This document shows, piece after piece, positions 36,379 to 59,024 of a stretch of 64,000 nt of DNA. The notes under the pieces are model-generated. The model searched no databases and was not told the origin of the DNA. It saw only the letters and a list, made by a program, of their open reading frames with translations. The first letter of the stretch is position 1, and every line of letters starts with the position of its first letter. The DNA is from Candidatus Omnitrophota bacterium (GTDB taxonomy: Bacteria; Omnitrophota; Gorgyraeia; Gygaellales; Profunditerraquicolaceae), in assembly GCA_043800555.1 (NCBI GenBank), contig JAZDMX010000003.1, forward strand, positions 175,531-239,530, read 5' to 3'. The translations under genes and the position numbers were made by a program.

Positions 36379-37755
36379 ATGGACCCTTCGGCCAGGCCCG
36401 GTTACCTAGACTTCTTATTTTATGCGTTCATTTTAATCGTATGCTATTTTTCTTTTAACCACCCGGATTTACTTTCTCCGGCCGTAAGCTCTTTTACCTA
36501 CCTGAACGGGCATATCAAAGATTTCTATGCAGTTAACAGCGCCCTTGAACTCGGGAATAACTACCTTCCTTCATCTTACATCCTATTTGCTATCTGGAAT
36601 ATCCCGGTAAAGTTGTTGGGGATAGCCGCCAGCCTGGACGCAGGTTACTTAATATTCTGGTATAAACTTTTAACCACGCTTTTTCTGGCTGCCGCGGGTT
36701 TCCTTATGTATAAGATCGGCCGGAGCATAGGGCTAAGCAAGAAAGACTCAAGACTGCTGACAATCATCTGGTTTTCATCGCCGATTCTTTTCTTCGGGCA
36801 GTTCATATTCGGCCAAATCGATATCTTTACCGTCTTTTTTACATTGGCCGGCCTGTATTATCTCCTTCAAAAGAGATTAATCCTTTTTACGCTATTTTTC
36901 GCAATAGCCGCCACTTTTAAGTATTTTCCTTTTTTTATATTCTTGCCGTTATTATTGCTTATTGAAAAGAGGCCTTTTAAATTGGCCGGTTATTTGTTTT
37001 TATCGCTTTTGCCCGCAGCGCTGGAAACATTATTTTACCTGGGTTCCCCGGAATTTGTATCCGGGGTAATCGGCTTTATAGGCGCCGGCCCCAGGATTTT
37101 CCAGGCGCACTTAAGCGTATTCCAGGGTGTAAGCATATACTTATTCCCCTGCCTCTGGTTTGTTATCTGCGGGGTATGCTTTTATACCGACTTATCAAAA
37201 GATAAATTTGCGTTCTATCAGGCGTCTTTGTATGTTTGCCTGGCGGTATTATGCCTGTTATTCGCCTTGATCTTTTGGGGCCCTCAATGGCTTACTTTCT
37301 TAACGCCATTTCTCGCGATTAACTTATTTATGAATAAAAGGATCAAAAGTTTATTACTGCTTGATTTCATAATGATGATCGCGTTTGTGGGATATGTTGT
37401 CAGCATTTTCCCGATGAACGTTGACCAGCAGTTATTTAGCTGCGGCGTATTGGGGAAATTTAACCCGGATCTATTTGTTCCGGAGAAAACGCTTATAATG
37501 AAAGCGATTTTCAGCCCGCTTGAGGTTAATTTCGCAAGCTTTTACAATATCTATTTTACGTTATTCTGTGCTACCCTCATATTGTACGTTTTGCTTAATT
37601 TTCCCTCCAAGGATAACGCCTGGAAAGGCCCGCATGCGCTTGTCCCGGTAAATGAATATTGGAGTTATGCCCGGTTGCGTTTTTTTGGAGGCGTGGCAAT
37701 CTTTATTCTCCCGGCTTTTTTTGTTTATCTCTACGCGTTTTTTCGATATAGATGA
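36379..37755 (+). CDS. Polytopic integral membrane protein of unknown function (possibly GT-C/DUF2029-like)
   Basis: More than 10 hydrophobic segments and no recognisable soluble domains. Confidence 0.5.
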   Translation: MDPSARPGYLDFLFYAFILIVCYFSFNHPDLLSPAVSSFTYLNGHIKDFYAVNSALELGNNYLPSSYILFAIWNIPVKLLGIAASLDAGYLIFWYKLLTTLFLAAAGFLMYKIGRSIGLSKKDSRLLTIIWFSSPILFFGQFIFGQIDIFTVFFTLAGLYYLLQKRLILFTLFFAIAATFKYFPFFIFLPLLLLIEKRPFKLAGYLFLSLLPAALETLFYLGSPEFVSGVIGFIGAGPRIFQAHLSVFQGVSIYLFPCLWFVICGVCFYTDLSKDKFAFYQASLYVCLAVLCLLFALIFWGPQWLTFLTPFLAINLFMNKRIKSLLLLDFIMMIAFVGYVVSIFPMNVDQQLFSCGVLGKFNPDLFVPEKTLIMKAIFSPLEVNFASFYNIYFTLFCATLILYVLLNFPSKDNAWKGPHALVPVNEYWSYARLRFFGGVAIFILPAFFVYLYAFFRYR

Positions 37756-37784: not shown

Positions 37785-37812
37785 TTGCAACTTTTTTAAC
37801 TTCTGTTATAAT
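37785..37812 (+). promoter_or_regulatory. Near-consensus sigma-70 promoter (TTGCAA-16 nt-TATAAT) ending 8 nt before the galT-like ATG, implying a leaderless or very short-leader transcript
   Basis: TTGCAA at 37785-37790 and TATAAT at 37807-37812, with the ATG at 37821. No SD lies in between. Confidence 0.5.
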
Positions 37813-37820
37813 TTATCACT

Positions 37821-38846
37821 ATGCCAGAGCTAAGAAAAGATCCGATTATAGGCAGGTGGGTAATCATCGCTACCGAACGGGCTAGGCGGCCGGACCAGTT
37901 CAGCGGAAAGCAGGAAGAGCCTTCCGCAGAAGAGCCCTGTCCTTTTTGCAGCGGTGCGGAATCCCAAACCCCTCCGGAAATTTACGCCATAAGGCAGCCT
38001 AATACCCAAAGGAATGGCCCCGGATGGGAATTAAGGGTTATCCCGAGCATTTCCCCGTTTTTAAGGATCGAGGGTGAACTGGGCAGGAGGGGAAACGGCC
38101 TGTACGATATGATGAACGGGATAGGGGCCCACGAGGTTATCGTTGAAACTGACCGGCATGTCGCTAATATGAGCGATTTGAGCGATGAGCAGATAACCAA
38201 GGTTTTAAAATGTTATTCGGACAGGATAACGGATTTAGAGAAAGACAAGCGTTTTAAATACGTTTTAGTTTTTAAGAATTACGGCAAAAGCGCCGGAGGC
38301 GGTTCTTTGAAGCACTCCCGTTCGCAGCTTATTGCTACTCCGGTAAATCCCAAGAGGGTAAAGGAAGAGCTTGCCGGCTCCAAGCAATATTTCGATTATC
38401 ACGAAAGATGCATATTCTGCGATTTAATCCGGCAGGAATCTGAACAGAAAGAGCGGCTTGTCCTTGATTTGGACGGTTTTATCGCAATTACCCCGTTTGC
38501 GGCGCGCTTTCCATTCGAGACCTGGATATTGCCTAAAAAACACTGCGCTGATTTTACCTCTCAAGACCCCGAATCTATGAAGTATTTGGGGAAAGTTATG
38601 AAGATCGTCCTTTCAAAGCTTAAAAAAGGGTTGAATGACCCTTCGTATAATTACGTTATTCACACGGCTCCTTTTCGCCGGCAAAAGGCAGGTTATTGGA
38701 AAACGGTGGATCAGGACTATCATTGGCATATTGAAATCATGCCGCGGCTTACCCGCGTAGCCGGGTTTGAATGGGGAACGGGTTTTTACATTTGCCCTTT
38801 ACCGCCGGAAGATGCCGCCGCTTTTTTAAGGGGAATCGAAGTCTAA
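37821..38846 (+). CDS. Galactose-1-phosphate uridylyltransferase-family (HIT branch III) protein, variant with HSRSQ in place of the HPHxQ active-site motif
   Basis: DPIIGRWVIIATERARRP and the Zn site CPFCSG are present. The active-site region reads GKSAGGGSLKHSRSQLIATP. Confidence 0.8.
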   Translation: MPELRKDPIIGRWVIIATERARRPDQFSGKQEEPSAEEPCPFCSGAESQTPPEIYAIRQPNTQRNGPGWELRVIPSISPFLRIEGELGRRGNGLYDMMNGIGAHEVIVETDRHVANMSDLSDEQITKVLKCYSDRITDLEKDKRFKYVLVFKNYGKSAGGGSLKHSRSQLIATPVNPKRVKEELAGSKQYFDYHERCIFCDLIRQESEQKERLVLDLDGFIAITPFAARFPFETWILPKKHCADFTSQDPESMKYLGKVMKIVLSKLKKGLNDPSYNYVIHTAPFRRQKAGYWKTVDQDYHWHIEIMPRLTRVAGFEWGTGFYICPLPPEDAAAFLRGIEV

Positions 38847-38847
38847 A

Positions 38848-39843
38848 ATGGCCGAATTAAGAAGAGATCCGATAGTAGGCAGATGGGTGATTGTGGATAC
38901 CGAACATCCAAGCGCCCCCCAGGATTTTCAATACGAGCAATACATCCAAAAAGGAGGGACTTGCCCTTTTTGCTATGGCAGCGAGGCGATGACCCCGCCG
39001 GAAATAGACGCTATCCGCGAACCGGGGACTGCCCCGAATACCGCGGGTTGGCAGGTGCGCGTAGTCCCCAATAAATTTCCCGCCCTTCAGGTTGAGGGCC
39101 AGTTAAACAGAAGGCCGCAAGGCATGTATGATATGTCCAGCGGAGTCGGCGCCCATGAAGTATTGATTGAGACGCCGTATCATGCCAAGGATATATGCGA
39201 TTTATTGCCGCTTGAAGCGGAGAATTACTTAAAGATGTGTTGCCGGCGGGCAATAGATTTGGCAAAGGACAAGCGTTTTAAGTACCTTATGTTTTTCAGG
39301 AATTTTGGTTCTGCCGCCGGAGCTTCCTTAGAGCATCCGCACACTCAGATTGTAGCTCTTCCTATGGTCCCTAAGAATGCCCTTGAAGAGATCCACGGGG
39401 CCAAGAGTTATTACGATTATCGCGAGCGTTGTATATTTTGCGATATTATCAGGCAGGAAGAACAGGAGAAGAGCAGGTTAATCCTGGAGAATAAATATTT
39501 CGTATCTTTTTGCCCTTTTGTTTCCCGTTTTCCGTTTGAGATTTGGATAATGCCTAAGAAGCATAGCGGTGCCTTTTGTTTTATGCCGGCTGAAGAAATA
39601 TCGGCTTTGGCGGCTATCCTTAAAGAAACAATAGCCAAGATTAAAAAGGTGTTCGTAAACCTTTCCTATAATTATATTATTCATTCCGCTCCGATTAATG
39701 GCGACAAAGAAGTAGAATATTATCATTGGCATATCGAGTTTATGCCTAAGCTTATGCAAGTGGCGGGTTTTGAATGGGGCACGGGTTTTTACCTTGATTT
39801 GACCTCTCCGGAATTAGCCGCAAAATACCTAAAGGCAGCCTAA
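38848..39843 (+). CDS. galT: Galactose-1-phosphate uridylyltransferase-family protein (canonical HPHxQ)
   Basis: DPIVGRWVIVDTEHP, CPFCYGSE, and LEHPHTQIVALP with the nucleophile His intact. The start follows 1 nt after the upstream stop. Confidence 0.8.
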   Translation: MAELRRDPIVGRWVIVDTEHPSAPQDFQYEQYIQKGGTCPFCYGSEAMTPPEIDAIREPGTAPNTAGWQVRVVPNKFPALQVEGQLNRRPQGMYDMSSGVGAHEVLIETPYHAKDICDLLPLEAENYLKMCCRRAIDLAKDKRFKYLMFFRNFGSAAGASLEHPHTQIVALPMVPKNALEEIHGAKSYYDYRERCIFCDIIRQEEQEKSRLILENKYFVSFCPFVSRFPFEIWIMPKKHSGAFCFMPAEEISALAAILKETIAKIKKVFVNLSYNYIIHSAPINGDKEVEYYHWHIEFMPKLMQVAGFEWGTGFYLDLTSPELAAKYLKAA

Positions 39844-39907: not shown

Positions 39908-40960
39908 ATGGCAGTAAAAGTTGGTATCAATGGTTTTGGAAGGATAGGCCGGCTTGTCGCCCGGGCAATCCTTGAAAAGAATTCCAAGGATCTGGAATTA
40001 GTCGCCGTAAATGATTTGACTGACGCTAAATCAAACGCCTTATTATTGAAATATGATTCGGTGCACGGCAGGTTTCGCGGTGAGGTAAAAACCGAAGGCG
40101 CCGACGTAATTTCGGTCAACGGCAAACAGATCAAGGTTTTAAGCAAAAAAGACCCTGCGGAATTGCCCTGGAAAGATTTGGGAGTCGATATCGTAATTGA
40201 ATCCACAGGTTTATTTACCATTAAGAAAGACGGCGTAAACAAAAAGGGCAAAGAGGTCAAGGGCGCGGAGAATCATATTACCAAGGGAGGCGCTAAGAAG
40301 GTTATAATTTCGGCTCCGGCTCAAGGAGAGGATATAACCATAGTTATGGGTGTTAATGAGGATAAATATGACCCGAAGAGCCATAATGTATTATCTAATG
40401 CCTCCTGCACCACTAATTGCCTGGCTCCGATAGCTAAAGTGTTGAACGACAAGTGGGGAATTACCAAGGGGCTTATGACTACAATTCATGCTTATACCAA
40501 TGACCAAAGAGTCCAGGATATGGCGCATTCTGACTTGCGCCGCGCCCGCGCAGCCGCTTTATCGATGATTCCGACCTCTACCGGCGCAGCCAAAGCCTTA
40601 TCTTTGGTTATACCGGAATTAAAAGGCAAGCTGGATGGTTTTTCGATGCGTGTCCCTGTTCCGAATGTTTCGGTTGTGGACTTGACCTGCCTTCTGGGCA
40701 AGAAAGTCACCTCTGAAGATATTAACGCGGCAATGAATGAAGCGTCTGCCGGCAGTATGAAAGGCATCCTCGGGGTAACGGCGGATCCGGTAGTTTCGGT
40801 TGATTTCAATCACTGCGCTTTAAGCTCTATTGTCGATTCCTTAAGTACTAAAGTCTTACAGGATGATTTTGTCAAAGTGCTTTCCTGGTATGACAATGAA
40901 TGGGGTTATTCCAACAGGGTGGTTGATCTGTGCGAGTATATCATTAAAAAAGGGCTATAA
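39908..40960 (+). CDS. gap: Glyceraldehyde-3-phosphate dehydrogenase, type I
   Basis: [15 protein letters not shown] ... [22 protein letters not shown] lies 7 nt upstream of the ATG at 39908; the track's TTG at 39869 is unlikely to be the real start. Confidence 0.95.
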
Positions 40961-41077: not shown

Positions 41078-43372
41078 ATGGCGATTCTATCCACAATTTT
41101 TGTTATTGGTTCCAGCGGCGTAGTAGCCCAGATTGTAGTCTTGCGCGAACTCCTGGTTAATTTCTACGGGAATGAATTGACCATAGGGATTATTTTGGCT
41201 AATTGGGTGGCCTTAGAGGCTGCCGGAGTATTCATTATCGGCAGGGCCATAGACAGGGTAAAAAATAAATTAAACGTATTTATTGCCCTGAATATCCTAT
41301 TTGCGTTAGTTTTACCTTTTGTTATTTATTTTTCGCGAATTTTTAAAGGAGCCGTTGGCATACCTTTTGCGGAAGCGGTTTCCCTGCCCGTGGTATTCAT
41401 TTCCTCATTTATTATAATCCTTCCGGCAGCATTCCTGCATGGAGCGCTTTTTAGCTGCGGGTGCAAGGTATATGATCCGTCCGGAGAAAACGCAGGCCGT
41501 GCCCTGGGTAATGTTTATGCCTGGGAAACAATCGGGACAATTGCCGGAGGACTGGTTTTAGCCTATTTATTGATTCCGCTTTGGAATTCATTCCAAATTG
41601 CTTTAAGCATTACATTCTTAAACCTGGGGTTTTGCGTTGTTCTAATCCCCGTTAAGAAGGCTACCGGCATTATGTTCCTTGAGCCGGATGCCGGGAATAT
41701 AGGCCCGCATTTTTTCTCTTTACGATTTCAAAAGGTAAAGTATCTTCTGCTGGTAATCTTGGCAATCTTATGCGGTATCTTTTTTTCTCCCTGGTCAAAT
41801 TATCTGCAAAAGGCATCTATCCAGAAACAATTTTCCGGCCAGCGGGTTTTGGATTACCGTAATTCCAGTTACGCCAATATTGCCGTGGTTAGGAAACTCG
41901 GACAGACAACGTTTTTCTATAACGGGTTTCCTCTAATCACTGCGCCGTTTCCGGATAAGCAGTTCGTGGAGGATTTCGGGAACCTTCCTTTATTATTCCA
42001 GCCTGCTTTGGATAGGGTCCTGATAGCAGGTAGCGGCATTGGCGGAATAATTAAAGAAGCCTTGAAATATCCCGTTAAAAAAATTGATTATGTTGAGATT
42101 GACCCTTTGATTATAGAGATGCTCAAGGAGTATCCCTCGTCATTAAGCCAAGAGGAGCTCGGGGATAAGAGGGTAAATGTAATAAACACCGATCCCAGGA
42201 TATTCCTCAGGGAAAATAGCGATTTATACGATGTGGTTTTAATCGGTTTATCCAACCAGGCGGATTTATCCTGTAACCGGTTTTTTACGGAGGAATTTTT
42301 CGCTTTAGCCAAGTCCAGGCTTTCACCCGGCGGTTTGCTTGCTTTATGGACCGGTGGTTCTTTAACCTATTTGAGCCAGGAATCTAAAGACCTGAATAGT
42401 TGCATACTAAACAGTTTGCAATCCGTATATAAATTCGTGCGGGTAATTCCCGGAGATTACAATATATTTATGGCTTCAGATTCCGCTTCGATTATGTCTG
42501 TAAATTCAAAGCTTTTGTCTAAGCGCATAGCGCGGGATAATATTGCCACAAGCTTGCTCATTCCGGATTATCTGGAGTATCGCTTGAGCAAAAGCCGGAT
42601 GGATTGGTTCGGCGCCCAAATGCGTTCCGCAACAAAGGAAATTAACCGCGATTTGCGCCCGGTAGCGGTTTATGAGGCCTTGAAAATAGCCAATAAAAAG
42701 TTTTCCCCCGGATGCAGCAAGTTATTTGCTTATTTGAATTACCTGGGTATTAAGGTTTTCTTTTTTCTGATATTGCTTATGACCATAGCCATAAGCAATA
42801 TTTCCAGGCGAACGGGCAGCCGCAAGCTGCCGGTTGCCTATGCGATATTTACTACGGGATTCTTTGGGATGTCGGCTAATTTGCTTTTAATCTTTGCCTA
42901 TCAGGTTTTCTACGGCTATCTTTACCAAAAAATAAGCATACTGACCGCATTCTTTATGGCGGGAATTGCCGCGGGAAGCTTTCTTTTGGTTTCCGGGGCG
43001 ATTAAGACTAAGAACAGCCGGGTATTATTAATTGTCTTTGAAGCCTTGTTAACGGTATTTTCATTGGTTTTGGGATTTACCGTATCAGGTTTTAACATTT
43101 TCTCTGGCTGTCCCGCTTTGGCCCTTTACGGTTTATTATTTATTTTGGGCCTGTTTATGGGCGCGGAATTCCCTTTAGCCGGGAAGCTGTATATGGAAGA
43201 TAAATCCGGGCTAGGAAGCGTTTCGGGGGTTCTTTATGCCAGCGACCTTATCGGCGGCTGGCTCTCCGGTATTTTAACAGGAATATTCTTTTTGCCTCTA
43301 CTGGGGTTTTTTGACGCCTGCCTGGTTATATTTATGCTCAAAATCAGCAGTTTGATAATTCTGCTTCAATAA
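41078..43372 (+). CDS. Membrane-embedded spermidine-synthase-like protein (polytopic TM domains flanking an aminopropyltransferase-fold domain)
   Basis: Central AGSGIGGIIKEALKYPVKKIDYVEIDPLIIEMLKEY...VINTDPRIFL...YDVVLIGLSNQ matches the spermidine synthase fold. About 8 N-terminal TM segments and roughly 6 C-terminal ones. Confidence 0.75.
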   Translation: MAILSTIFVIGSSGVVAQIVVLRELLVNFYGNELTIGIILANWVALEAAGVFIIGRAIDRVKNKLNVFIALNILFALVLPFVIYFSRIFKGAVGIPFAEAVSLPVVFISSFIIILPAAFLHGALFSCGCKVYDPSGENAGRALGNVYAWETIGTIAGGLVLAYLLIPLWNSFQIALSITFLNLGFCVVLIPVKKATGIMFLEPDAGNIGPHFFSLRFQKVKYLLLVILAILCGIFFSPWSNYLQKASIQKQFSGQRVLDYRNSSYANIAVVRKLGQTTFFYNGFPLITAPFPDKQFVEDFGNLPLLFQPALDRVLIAGSGIGGIIKEALKYPVKKIDYVEIDPLIIEMLKEYPSSLSQEELGDKRVNVINTDPRIFLRENSDLYDVVLIGLSNQADLSCNRFFTEEFFALAKSRLSPGGLLALWTGGSLTYLSQESKDLNSCILNSLQSVYKFVRVIPGDYNIFMASDSASIMSVNSKLLSKRIARDNIATSLLIPDYLEYRLSKSRMDWFGAQMRSATKEINRDLRPVAVYEALKIANKKFSPGCSKLFAYLNYLGIKVFFFLILLMTIAISNISRRTGSRKLPVAYAIFTTGFFGMSANLLLIFAYQVFYGYLYQKISILTAFFMAGIAAGSFLLVSGAIKTKNSRVLLIVFEALLTVFSLVLGFTVSGFNIFSGCPALALYGLLFILGLFMGAEFPLAGKLYMEDKSGLGSVSGVLYASDLIGGWLSGILTGIFFLPLLGFFDACLVIFMLKISSLIILLQ

Positions 43373-50997: not shown

Positions 50998-52029
50998 ATG
51001 GAGAGAGTCGGAATACTCACAGGCGGCGGTGATTGCCCGGGCCTAAACCCGGTTATCCGGGCAGTAGTCAGAAAATCGTTTTTAGAAGGTTACGAAGTAA
51101 TCGGGATAAAGAACGGATGGAAGGGTTTGGTTGAGAATGATGCTATGGTTTTAAATTTGGGAGCGGTATCGGGAATATTGCCCAAGGGAGGGACTATTCT
51201 AGGGACATCCCGGACTAATCCTTATAAGAAGGAAGAAGAATTGAGGAAAGTAAAAGAAAGCTTTAAAAATATGGGGTTGTATGCTTTAGTGGCGGTAGGG
51301 GGAGAGGATACCCTGGGCGTTGCTTCAAAATTAACTAAGGACGGCATAGCCAATATTGTCGGTGTGCCCAAAACGATAGATAATGACCTTTCGGCGACAG
51401 ATTATACTTTTGGTTTTGATACGGCCTTAAACGTCGCGACCGAGTGCATCGACCGTTTACATACTACCGCGGAAAGCCATCATCGGATTATTGTGGCCGA
51501 AGTAATGGGCAGGCATGCGGGTTGGATTGCCGTAGAAGCAGGTATTGCCGGCGGCGCGGATGTAGTGTTGATCCCCGAAGTGCCCATTAATATCGAGGAA
51601 GTCTGCGGAATAATCAAGAAAAGGCACGAGAGAGGAAAGACCTTCAGCATAGTTGTCGTGGCTGAAGGCGCGCAATTTGGAGACAAAGGCCTGGTTACTC
51701 AAGAGCAAAAGCTTGATTCGTTCGGCCATGTCCGCTTAGGCGGTATTGGTGAAGCCCTGGCCAGCGAGATAGAAAAAAGGACAGGTTATGAAACGCGAGT
51801 GAGCGTGCTCGGGCATATACAAAGGGGAGGCTCTCCGACAGCTTTTGACAGGGTATTGGGGACAAGGTTCGGGGTAAAAGCAGTAGAGTTGATTAAGAGC
51901 AAAAGATTCGGCAGGATGGTCGCGCTGCAAGGCAGCAAGATAGTCGATGTCCCCCTGTCGGATGCGGTCAAGGCCTTAAAGACGGTAGATATGGAACTAT
52001 ATGATATAGCCAAGGTTTTCTTTGGCTAA
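50998..52029 (+). CDS. pfp: 6-phosphofructokinase, probably pyrophosphate-dependent (PPi-PFK)
   Basis: GILTGGGDCPGLN, GGEDTLGVA (Asp at the position of E. coli Gly104) and PKTIDNDL (Lys at the position of Gly124). SD GAGGAGG lies upstream. Confidence 0.85.
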   Translation: MERVGILTGGGDCPGLNPVIRAVVRKSFLEGYEVIGIKNGWKGLVENDAMVLNLGAVSGILPKGGTILGTSRTNPYKKEEELRKVKESFKNMGLYALVAVGGEDTLGVASKLTKDGIANIVGVPKTIDNDLSATDYTFGFDTALNVATECIDRLHTTAESHHRIIVAEVMGRHAGWIAVEAGIAGGADVVLIPEVPINIEEVCGIIKKRHERGKTFSIVVVAEGAQFGDKGLVTQEQKLDSFGHVRLGGIGEALASEIEKRTGYETRVSVLGHIQRGGSPTAFDRVLGTRFGVKAVELIKSKRFGRMVALQGSKIVDVPLSDAVKALKTVDMELYDIAKVFFG

Positions 52030-58559: not shown

Positions 58560-59024
58560 ATGGATAAGATTTGGGCGCCGTGGAGGCTGGGGTATATAAG
58601 GGGTAAAAAGCAAAAAGGCTGCGTATTCTGTAAATCCATCCGGAAACAGGAAGATGGTTATGTGATTTTCAAAACTTCGCAGGCAATCGCGATGCTCAAT
58701 ATTTTTCCATATAACAACGGGCATATGTTGATTTCTCCCCTGCGGCACCTGAGCCGGTTGGACCAGTTGACGGAGCCAGAGGCGCTTGGTTTATTCCGGG
58801 CGGTTAAGAAGGCACAAGGGCTCCTGGAGAAAGTCTTGAAACCTCAGGGGTTCAATATCGGAGTAAATTTATCCCGTAGCGCCGGAGCCGGAATTACCGG
58901 GCATTTGCATATACATATAGTCCCGCGCTGGGCAGGCGACACTAATTTTATGCCGGCGGTTTTTGGCACAAAAGTGATTTCCGAATCATTGGAGCAGTTA
59001 TGCAAGCAATTAAGGGCTGCCTAG
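58560..59024 (+). CDS. HIT-family (histidine triad) nucleotide hydrolase/transferase
   Basis: Histidine triad GHLHIHIVPR. N-terminal Zn-binding CVFC. Confidence 0.85.
   Translation: MDKIWAPWRLGYIRGKKQKGCVFCKSIRKQEDGYVIFKTSQAIAMLNIFPYNNGHMLISPLRHLSRLDQLTEPEALGLFRAVKKAQGLLEKVLKPQGFNIGVNLSRSAGAGITGHLHIHIVPRWAGDTNFMPAVFGTKVISESLEQLCKQLRAA

Follow-up and report, generated by a model that had tools for sequence, protein, structure and literature searches.

Reciprocal loss of active-site residues in a conserved tandem pair of GalT-family paralogs from Omnitrophota

Textbook accounts describe the enzymes of the GalT family as homodimers whose two identical sites lie at the subunit interface; human GALT, which is defective in classic galactosemia, is one of them. 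The stretch of Candidatus Omnitrophota DNA analysed here (64,000 nucleotides, hereafter the window) raises the question of what a member of this family can do once its nucleophilic histidine is gone, when it is encoded directly beside a paralog that has kept this residue. Indeed, two open reading frames (ORFs) of the same strand, separated by one base, are present in the window: ORF A (37821..38846, + strand, 341 aa), a GalT/ADP-glucose-phosphorylase-like paralog lacking the nucleophilic histidine, and ORF B (38848..39843, + strand, 331 aa), a paralog endowed with the full set of catalytic residues that act in cis and devoid of the arginines that act in trans. They had been described as tandem GalT-family paralogs in a first-pass annotation made from the DNA letters, and the coordinates of the ORFs, their 49% identity from end to end (E 1e-122) and their GalT Pfam domains all agree with this description. 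A is 100% identical to protein P0001 of a Candidatus Omnitrophota metagenome-assembled genome. A and B are degenerate in complementary ways, B having the cis set without the trans arginines and A the reverse, and the pair is conserved throughout the Omnitrophota genomes sampled. It is probable, given these residues, the gene order and natural fusions of the two genes, that A and B form an obligate or strongly preferred heterodimeric nucleotidyltransferase with one composite site, in which A would be a pseudoenzyme subunit supplying the trans arm.

Family membership and the missing nucleophile of A

Both proteins match the Pfam families PF01087 and PF02744 (GalT N- and C-terminal domains) and PF01230 (HIT), as well as DUF4921 and DUF4931_N. 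Their scores exceed the cut-off of TIGR00209 galT (113.2 bits for A and 121.2 bits for B versus 102.1) and lie far below that of the equivalog NF008724 (129.5 and 125.9 bits, respectively, versus 448). The CPFC zinc motif, reported for both proteins in the first-pass annotation, is indeed present as C40/C43 in A and C39/C42 in B; a second CxxC motif accompanies it in both, and the zinc site (C40, C43, H113 and H165 in A; C39, C42, H112 and H163 in B) is invariant in the two clades. The AF2 model of A (pLDDT 91.6, pTM 0.90) has its best PDB match in 1z84_A (TM 0.82/0.89), with archaeal, E. coli and human GalT next, and superposes at TM ~0.8 on 1Z84, 1HXQ and 5IN3, that is, on the GalT fold of two tandem HIT-like half-domains that belongs to branch III of the HIT superfamily. 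Judged from this model, A appears to be a well-folded member of the family from which only particular residues are missing.

The initial label of GalT holds at the level of the family; within it, the A-B pair is closer to the ADP-glucose phosphorylase At5g18200 of Arabidopsis than to the GalT of the Leloir pathway. In brief, (i) the top match among the sequences of solved structures is At5g18200 (1Z84/2H39), with an E value of 6e-72 for A and 2e-62 for B, (ii) the residues that bind the hexose in the Leloir enzyme (E. coli K311, F312, V314, Y316, E317 and Q323) are not conserved in A or B, which have E, W, T/S, F and Y at those positions and no counterpart of Q323, and (iii) the C-terminal sugar loop of both proteins is of the At5g18200 type.

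The motif H-x-H-x-Q, whose second histidine is the nucleophile, is present in B and absent from A. In B, the sequence reads E-H163-P-H165-T-Q167 (H163 to Q167 at 39334..39348, + strand), and H165 is the predicted nucleotidyl-accepting histidine. In A, it reads K-H165-S-R167-S-Q169 and belongs to a phosphate loop with a degenerate HIT motif (N153...G159-G-G-S-L-K-H165-S-R167-S-Q169; 38277..38327, + strand), in which the loop is one residue longer than that of B. Arg167, encoded by a CGT codon (38319..38321, + strand), occupies the position of At5g18200 H186 and of E. coli H166: the HMMER alignment to PDB 1Z84 places it on His186 of the segment S-H184-S-H186-S-Q ('shshsq'), and the MAFFT alignment places it on His166 of E. 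coli GalT, the sequence of which was taken from NC_000913.3. A second deposited sequence of At5g18200, 2H39, reads Gly at the position of His186. The substitution of Arg for His166 in the HSRSQ motif of A, as announced in the first-pass annotation, is thus borne out by both alignments, and so is the prediction that A is dead as a classical transferase, inasmuch as the nucleophile is absent. Alignment with GalT and ADP-glucose phosphorylase structures, proposed there as a check, reveals no compensating histidine near R167, and no alternative nucleophile is conserved near this residue. A is very probably not a classical covalent-histidine transferase.

The substitution is neither an error nor the trace of a decaying pseudogene, because the motif H-x-R-S-Q is kept in the closest homologs of A and arginine in most of its orthologs. 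Indeed, among the 120 closest database homologs (74-100% identity), H-x-R-S-Q is present in all 117 sequences for which the motif search found the motif, one of them off by one register; the search found no motif in the remaining 3. Residue counts in orthologs refer here to alignment columns of 78 A and 70 B sequences from Omnitrophota genomes, in E. coli GalT numbering; motif columns were taken from the alignments, and plain regular expressions missed many sequences. The nucleophile column contains R in 73, H in 3, K in 1 and I in 1 of the A orthologs, and H in all 70 B orthologs, whose H-x-H-x-Q motif is kept in 70/70 cases. Since all six arginine codons (CGT, CGC, CGG, CGA, AGG and AGA) are used at position 167 of the A orthologs, this arginine is under long-term purifying selection. 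Furthermore, A is under stronger constraint than B and evolves more slowly, with a mean pairwise identity of 0.685 versus 0.636 over 67 genomes and a higher conservation than B in 91% of genome pairs.

Reciprocal residue loss, gene order and natural fusions

In the homodimeric members of the family, each site is built from two chains, the cis chain giving the nucleophilic His, the Gln, the alpha-phosphate Ser and the ribose-binding Asn, and the partner chain giving the C-terminal sugar loop and two arginines of its N-terminal arm, which bind the hexose-1-phosphate or the acceptor phosphate. At5g18200 and the class I GalTs are described as homodimers with active sites between the subunits in a preprint overview of the family. 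The two arginines, R28 and R31 in E. coli, correspond to Arg48 and Arg51 of human GALT; in the complex of the E. coli enzyme with UDP-glucose, they contact the hexose-1-phosphate moiety. Structural and simulation work on the human enzyme indicates that they act in trans, on the site that holds His, Gln, Ser and Asn of the other chain. Indeed, Arg48 comes from the chain opposite to Gln188 (PMC5081055); in simulations, Arg48 of chain A bonds Phe99 of chain B and Arg51 of chain B forms a salt bridge with Asp98 of chain A, and residues of both chains, chiefly Arg48, Arg51 and the segment 330-340, hold glucose-1-phosphate (Glc-1-P) (PMC8513031).

The two clades have lost opposite parts of this site. 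On the trans side, R28 is conserved in 78/78 A orthologs and in only 4/70 B orthologs, which otherwise have H (35), N (10), K (5), D (4) or other residues; R31 is R in 73 and K in 5 of the A sequences, and in B it is most frequently K (39), then A (9), G (5), S (5) and others. In the window, A has the motif R20-A-R22-R23 (37878..37889, + strand), which corresponds to R28, K30 and R31 of E. coli and to R41, K43 and R44 of At5g18200, and B has H20-P-S22-A23 (38905..38916, + strand) at the place of the R-x-K-R motif. On the cis side, the ribose-binding N77 is N in 70/70 B orthologs, and in A it is replaced by S in 74 sequences and kept in 4; F79 of the nucleotide strand is F or Y in B and A or S in A. 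In the A protein of the window, this strand (N-x-F/Y; E. coli N77-D78-F79) is replaced by S76-I77-S78 (38046..38054, + strand). The alpha-phosphate S161, located three residues before the zinc-ligand histidine, is S or T in 67/67 B sequences, and varied in A (R 28, G 14, S 9, K 8, others); the phosphate loop has 10 residues in 77/77 A and 9 in 67/67 B sequences. Conserved in both A and B are Q168, N153, G159 and the C-terminal loop A-G-F-E-W-G-T-G-F-Y, which in A (A-G-F-E317-W318-G-T-G-F-Y; 38760..38789, + strand) is the trans sugar loop corresponding to E. coli K311-E317 and to GGFEIGTGCY of At5g18200. B of the window has the whole cis set (N75, F77, N152, G158, S160, H163, H165 and Q167), with H20, S22 and A23 in place of the trans arginines. 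The canonical HPHTQ motif that had been noted for the downstream copy is indeed there, together with the other cis residues, but B is not canonical as a whole, since R28 and R31 are lost from it. R28, N77 and H166 are held together in one chain by 101 of the 143 representatives in a diverse sample of the family, so the division of these residues between A and B is derived.

The tandem itself is widespread. At least 585 related stretches are present in the genome collection, and a scan of one genome per species gave 80 loci, mostly labelled Candidatus Omnitrophota, together with about 10 Planctomycetota-type labels, one 'PVC group bacterium', one 'uncultured bacterium' and one Candidatus Undivivens industriae. 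B directly follows A in 75 of these 80 loci, and in the other 5 the contig ends before a downstream gene is visible. The block priA-fmt-A-B-gap recurs, and the order A-B-gap is kept in most of the loci. The stop codon of A lies within -14 to +4 nt of the start of B in 53/68 genomes, most commonly with a 1-base overlap or abutting, and this tight coupling suggests equimolar synthesis of the two proteins. In the window, the junction (38828..38850, + strand) comprises AAGGGG within the 3' end of A, about 13 nt upstream of the ATG of B, then the TAA stop codon of A (38844-38846), one base, and the ATG at 38848, an arrangement for translational coupling. Three divergent A-like proteins, P0133 (S-H-S-R-S-H), P0134 (R-H-V-R-S-Q) and P0195 (Q-R-V-S-S-H, in which the zinc-ligand histidine is also lost), are orthologs of A, since all three are encoded between fmt and B. 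More distant A-like proteins have S, Y, V, I, C or L at the nucleophile position, and their Gln is often lost as well.

Natural fusions of A and B were found in three proteins from different samples (P0121, P0289 and P0290; 596-599 aa, 52-56% mutually identical). In their A part, the N-terminal arm is invariant (MSELRK..WV..AVERAKRPNDF) and the C-terminal half, with V-A-G-F-E-W-G-T-G-x-Y-I-N-P-T, is conserved; between the two lie about 100 degenerate residues, from which the zinc site (CPFC), the Asn strand and the HxH motif are gone. Their B part begins at CPFC, without an arm, and every cis residue is invariant in it. The C-terminal sugar loop is invariant in the A part and relaxed in the B part. 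The fusions thus keep exactly the pieces predicted for a single composite site, the rest having been discarded. The gene for P0121 is located upstream of gap-pgk-tpi, with a phosphoglucomutase gene farther upstream on the same contig. An AF2 model of P0121, computed from a mixed alignment that stacked every single-domain homolog on the B part, reached a pLDDT of 77.5 and a pTM of 0.73, with low confidence for the N-terminal arm and both trans loops; given this only moderate confidence, it was not used as evidence for the geometry of a pseudo-dimer.

Other arrangements occur in the family. A transcript of the euglenid Eutreptiella gymnastica encodes P0160 (871 aa), which has two complete tandem GalT-like modules, both with an intact H-x-H-S-Q motif; it amounts to a pseudo-dimer in one chain, with no degeneration of either half. 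In three loci (L083, 5001-6473; L084 and L090, 2719-4201), GalT-like genes lie directly upstream of a gene for a universal stress protein (Usp), with no paralog nearby; in this lineage, P0148 keeps H-x-H, and P0127 (motif S-H-P-V-S-Y) has neither the arginine arm nor the Asn nor the nucleophile. The P0127 type could possibly be a non-enzymatic solo form. Whether the absence of R28 always goes with an A-type neighbour was examined; it does not, since P0122, P0148 and P0162 are encoded by solo genes.

A candidate heterodimer and its alternatives

In an A:B heterodimer, the complete site would combine the His165 side of B with the R20/R23 arm and the C-terminal loop of A, and the other site would be degenerate on both sides, with Arg167 of A where the nucleophile was. 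Because B is without the trans arginines and A without the cis set, only A:B would hold a complete site, and exactly one. The two proteins would be interdependent, since B has lost the trans arginines (R28 almost always, R31 being mostly Lys or lost). The first-pass annotation had left three options for A, namely a regulatory partner, a heteromeric partner or an enzyme of changed chemistry, for example a phosphorylase with a different nucleophile. The heteromeric partner is favoured because of the reciprocal residue loss, the conserved and coupled tandem and the natural fusions; another nucleophile is disfavoured, as the ribose-binding Asn and the alpha-phosphate Ser are lost too and the position is variable among orthologs and relatives.

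Several observations weigh against such a heterodimer. The co-occurrence of the two genes (in tandem in 75/80 loci, coupled in 53/68 genomes and fused in three lineages) has one divergent exception, an A-like gene without an adjacent B (L086). The solo genes P0122, P0148 and P0162 code for proteins in which the cis motifs are intact but position R28 is not Arg; to judge from these members, R28 might not be an absolute requirement, and a B:B homodimer might be active. Lys is present at the R31 position in 39/70 B orthologs. The arm of B (residues 1-16) and its C-terminal loop stay highly conserved, which would be superfluous if the second site were dead, unless they have a structural or ligand-binding role. 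The substrate and the direction of the reaction are read from homology and fusions only, and no glycogen genes are present in the 64-kb window. Finally, A and B are each monophyletic in a neighbour-joining tree but are not sister clades, A being placed within a larger group rich in degenerate motifs; long-branch effects are likely in this tree.

The solo members with intact cis motifs but another residue than Arg at position R28 also lend weight to the alternative that A and B are independent homodimers, merely co-transcribed, B:B being an enzyme without trans arginines or with Lys, and A:A a non-catalytic binder, such as a sugar-phosphate/nucleotide-binding sensor, a regulator of another protein or a moonlighting scaffold. 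The existence of fully degenerate solo members such as P0127, beside a Usp gene, is in line with it, as are the persisting C-terminal loop of B and the highly conserved pocket of A (N153, G159, H165 and Q169), around whose phosphate position an A:A dimer would have three arginines. However, it leaves unexplained why, across about 70 genomes, A keeps exactly what B has lost and vice versa, and why three divergent fusions join the A arm and C-terminal half to an arm-less B while the cis half of A is dropped; the tight stop/start coupling, with the equimolar synthesis that it suggests, also speaks against it. Independent homodimers are for these reasons considered unlikely.

That A is itself active with changed chemistry, Arg167 serving as an electrostatic catalyst for a non-covalent in-line transfer, or another nucleophile being used (e.g. 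in a phosphorylase or hydrolase with a new substrate), would account for the strong conservation of Arg167 in the core clade with all six codons, for the retention of Gln169, Asn153, Gly159 and both metal sites, and for the slower evolution of A. It is nevertheless very improbable, since the ribose-binding Asn (replaced by S in 74/78 sequences) is missing from A along with the alpha-phosphate Ser, and the phosphate loop of A has one extra residue; moreover, position 167 varies within the orthologous, syntenic lineage itself (H, K or I in some of the species), distant A-like proteins have S, Y, V, I, C or L there, often with loss of the Gln, and the whole motif has disappeared from the fusion lineage. 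Nor is an alternative nucleophile conserved near position 167 of A. As for A being a functionless duplicate decaying under relaxed selection after the tandem duplication, the loss of the catalytic histidine and the many residues found at this position in related lineages would be expected, but A is full length, has a confident fold, is present at every locus examined and is more conserved than B, and the synonymous turnover at the arginine codon is a mark of purifying selection. Such a decay is effectively refuted by the conservation data and has hardly any probability left. The heterodimer with a pseudoenzyme subunit is the most probable of these readings.

The second site of this heterodimer may not be idle. 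Its sugar-anchoring residues are all conserved (N153 and G159 of A, and the C-terminal E-W-x-T-G-F-Y loop of B), and its nucleotide contacts are gone. The phosphate-binding arginines of the partner chain would be replaced there by an arginine of the same chain, R167 of A, which is under strong purifying selection. Arg167 may fill and stabilise the dead pocket, or bind an anionic ligand in it. It is conceivable, although rather doubtful, that this site has been rebuilt for the non-catalytic binding of a hexose phosphate or another anion that regulates the catalytic site, in which case the pair would be a self-contained catalytic and allosteric heterodimer controlling the flux that links NDP-glucose (NDP, nucleoside diphosphate) or glycogen to glycolysis, a role with which the conserved gap gene directly downstream is in keeping. 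The second site is not essential for the basic function, because it is obliterated in the fusion lineage.

Concerning the reaction, the most likely one, as judged from sequence comparison, is a reversible phosphorolysis, NDP-glucose (such as ADP-glucose) + phosphate (Pi) <-> Glc-1-P + NDP, which would link the pools of alpha-glucan and NDP-glucose with glycolysis. It would proceed via a nucleotidyl-His165 intermediate on B and could feed or drain glycogen and glycolysis. This ADP-glucose-phosphorylase-like reaction is proposed because of the closest similarity of the pair, the sugar loop of At5g18200 type, the gap neighbour, the position of a fusion gene among pgm, gap, pgk and tpi, and the fusions of GalT-like domains to enzymes of families GT5 and GH57. 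In these last, a GalT-like domain is joined to a GT5 glycogen/starch synthase in the P0152 cluster (19 sequences, 814 aa, from many independent contigs, one member being labelled Coprothermobacterota) and to GH57 glycoside hydrolases in P0155 and P0201 (858-875 aa), and they tie the enzyme subfamily to alpha-glucan metabolism.

Genomic surroundings and comparison with known systems

Upstream of A, a promoter-like site (TTGCAA-16 nt-TATAAT, preceded by a TG; 37785..37812, + strand), identified by consensus match only, is the top + strand match of the promoter scan (10/12, sigma-70-like) and ends 8 nt 5' of the ATG of A. No Shine-Dalgarno sequence is present between this site and the ATG (37785-37820), and the A-B transcript may be leaderless or near-leaderless, to judge from the position of the consensus match. 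Downstream of B, the conserved neighbour gap, coding for a glyceraldehyde-3-phosphate dehydrogenase, is located at 39908..40960 (+ strand). Its mechanically called ORF begins at TTG 39869; however, the ATG at 39908 (MAVKVGING...) is preceded by a strong AAGGAGG and is likely the real start, which gives a B-gap spacer of 64 nt, without any terminator-like site.

The neighbours of A and B in the window are cell-envelope glycosyltransferases, priA, fmt, gap, a phosphofructokinase and housekeeping genes; glycogen, galactose and NDP-sugar genes were looked for beside the pair and none was found, and galK, galE and galM are absent from the 64-kb window. No third GalT-like copy is present in the window either, which holds in addition only a small, stand-alone canonical HIT-domain protein (58560-59024, 154 aa); the latter lies beside a metallophosphoesterase and two HD-domain phosphohydrolases, and these genes, of the nucleotide-phosphate hydrolase type, form a cluster that has no relation to A and B. 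A phosphofructokinase gene (PF00365) is encoded at 50998-52029, 11 kb downstream of the pair. Should this enzyme depend on pyrophosphate (PPi), an NDP-glucose phosphorylase and an NDP-glucose pyrophosphorylase would form a cycle making PPi from ATP and Pi; this is put forward as an idea only.

Between fmt and A, the window encodes a multi-pass membrane protein of 458 aa (36379-37755) without a Pfam match; it has 0 homologs in the 80 related loci, where A normally follows fmt directly. A CBS-domain protein gene occupies the same spot in one related contig (L087), and the interval between fmt and A looks like a variable insertion point. Beyond gap, a protein of 764 aa (41078-43372), in which a spermidine/spermine synthase domain is flanked on both sides by long membrane-spanning regions, recurs 3' of gap in several related loci. 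Over the whole window (1-64000), nearly all long ORFs are on the + strand and the GC skew is positive in each 2-kb bin; the gene-strand bias is thus very strong across the full 64 kb.

If the heterodimer is real, the A-B pair would be a candidate pseudoenzyme subunit with its enzyme in the HIT/GalT family and a phylum-wide natural experiment that cleanly separates the cis from the trans contributions to catalysis, and structural work could make direct use of the fusion proteins as a single-chain version of the pair. It would also point to a glycolysis-linked NDP-glucose phosphorylase step in the poorly understood carbon metabolism of Omnitrophota, and the annotation of the many Omnitrophota genes that belong to this pair, now named 'galactose-1-phosphate uridylyltransferase' or 'DUF4931 domain-containing protein', would need to be corrected.

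In a literature search, no description was found of such a split pair, or of a pseudoenzyme subunit, in the HIT/GalT family. Heteromers of an enzyme with an inactive paralog are nonetheless known elsewhere, such as the small and large subunits of plant ADP-glucose pyrophosphorylase and, in trypanosomatids, S-adenosylmethionine decarboxylase (AdoMetDC) with its prozyme and the paralog pair of deoxyhypusine synthase. In these heteromers, one copy has lost catalytic residues and is kept as an essential or modulatory partner; if the active sites are formed at the subunit interface, only part of their number remains functional. The logic of the A-B pair is the same, but the folds and the chemistry are unrelated, so that the likeness is one of principle only.

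Within the family, the closest known system is At5g18200, which is the best sequence match of both A and B and the best structural match of the A model, and which shares with both the N-terminal CPFC, the second CxxC and the sugar loop GFE[I/W]GTGxY, and with B only the HxHxQ motif. In contrast to the pair, it is a homodimer in which one chain holds R41, R44, N94, S181, H186 and Q188, so that both of its sites can be complete; A and B divide these cis and trans sets between them. The second-closest solved relative, with E values of 2e-36 for A and 6e-43 for B, is PaGalT of Pyrobaculum aerophilum (probably PDB 6K5Z/6K9Z, 'uridylyltransferase'), which has the motif H-P-H-S-Q; it is listed with the class I GalTs, homodimers according to the preprint overview, carries HxHxQ in its chain and is not known, from the structure entries, to have a paired degenerate paralog. 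The class I GalTs at large (E. coli, 1HXP/1HXQ/1GUP; human, 5IN3) have in common with A and B the fold, the HIT branch, the composite site at the interface and the trans R28/R31 arm, and the nucleophilic second histidine, the Gln and the zinc-ligand histidine correspond. They differ from the pair by an identity of about 22% in a structure-based alignment, by hexose residues that are not conserved in A and B, by gal operon neighbours that the pair does not have, and by the nucleophile that is missing from A.

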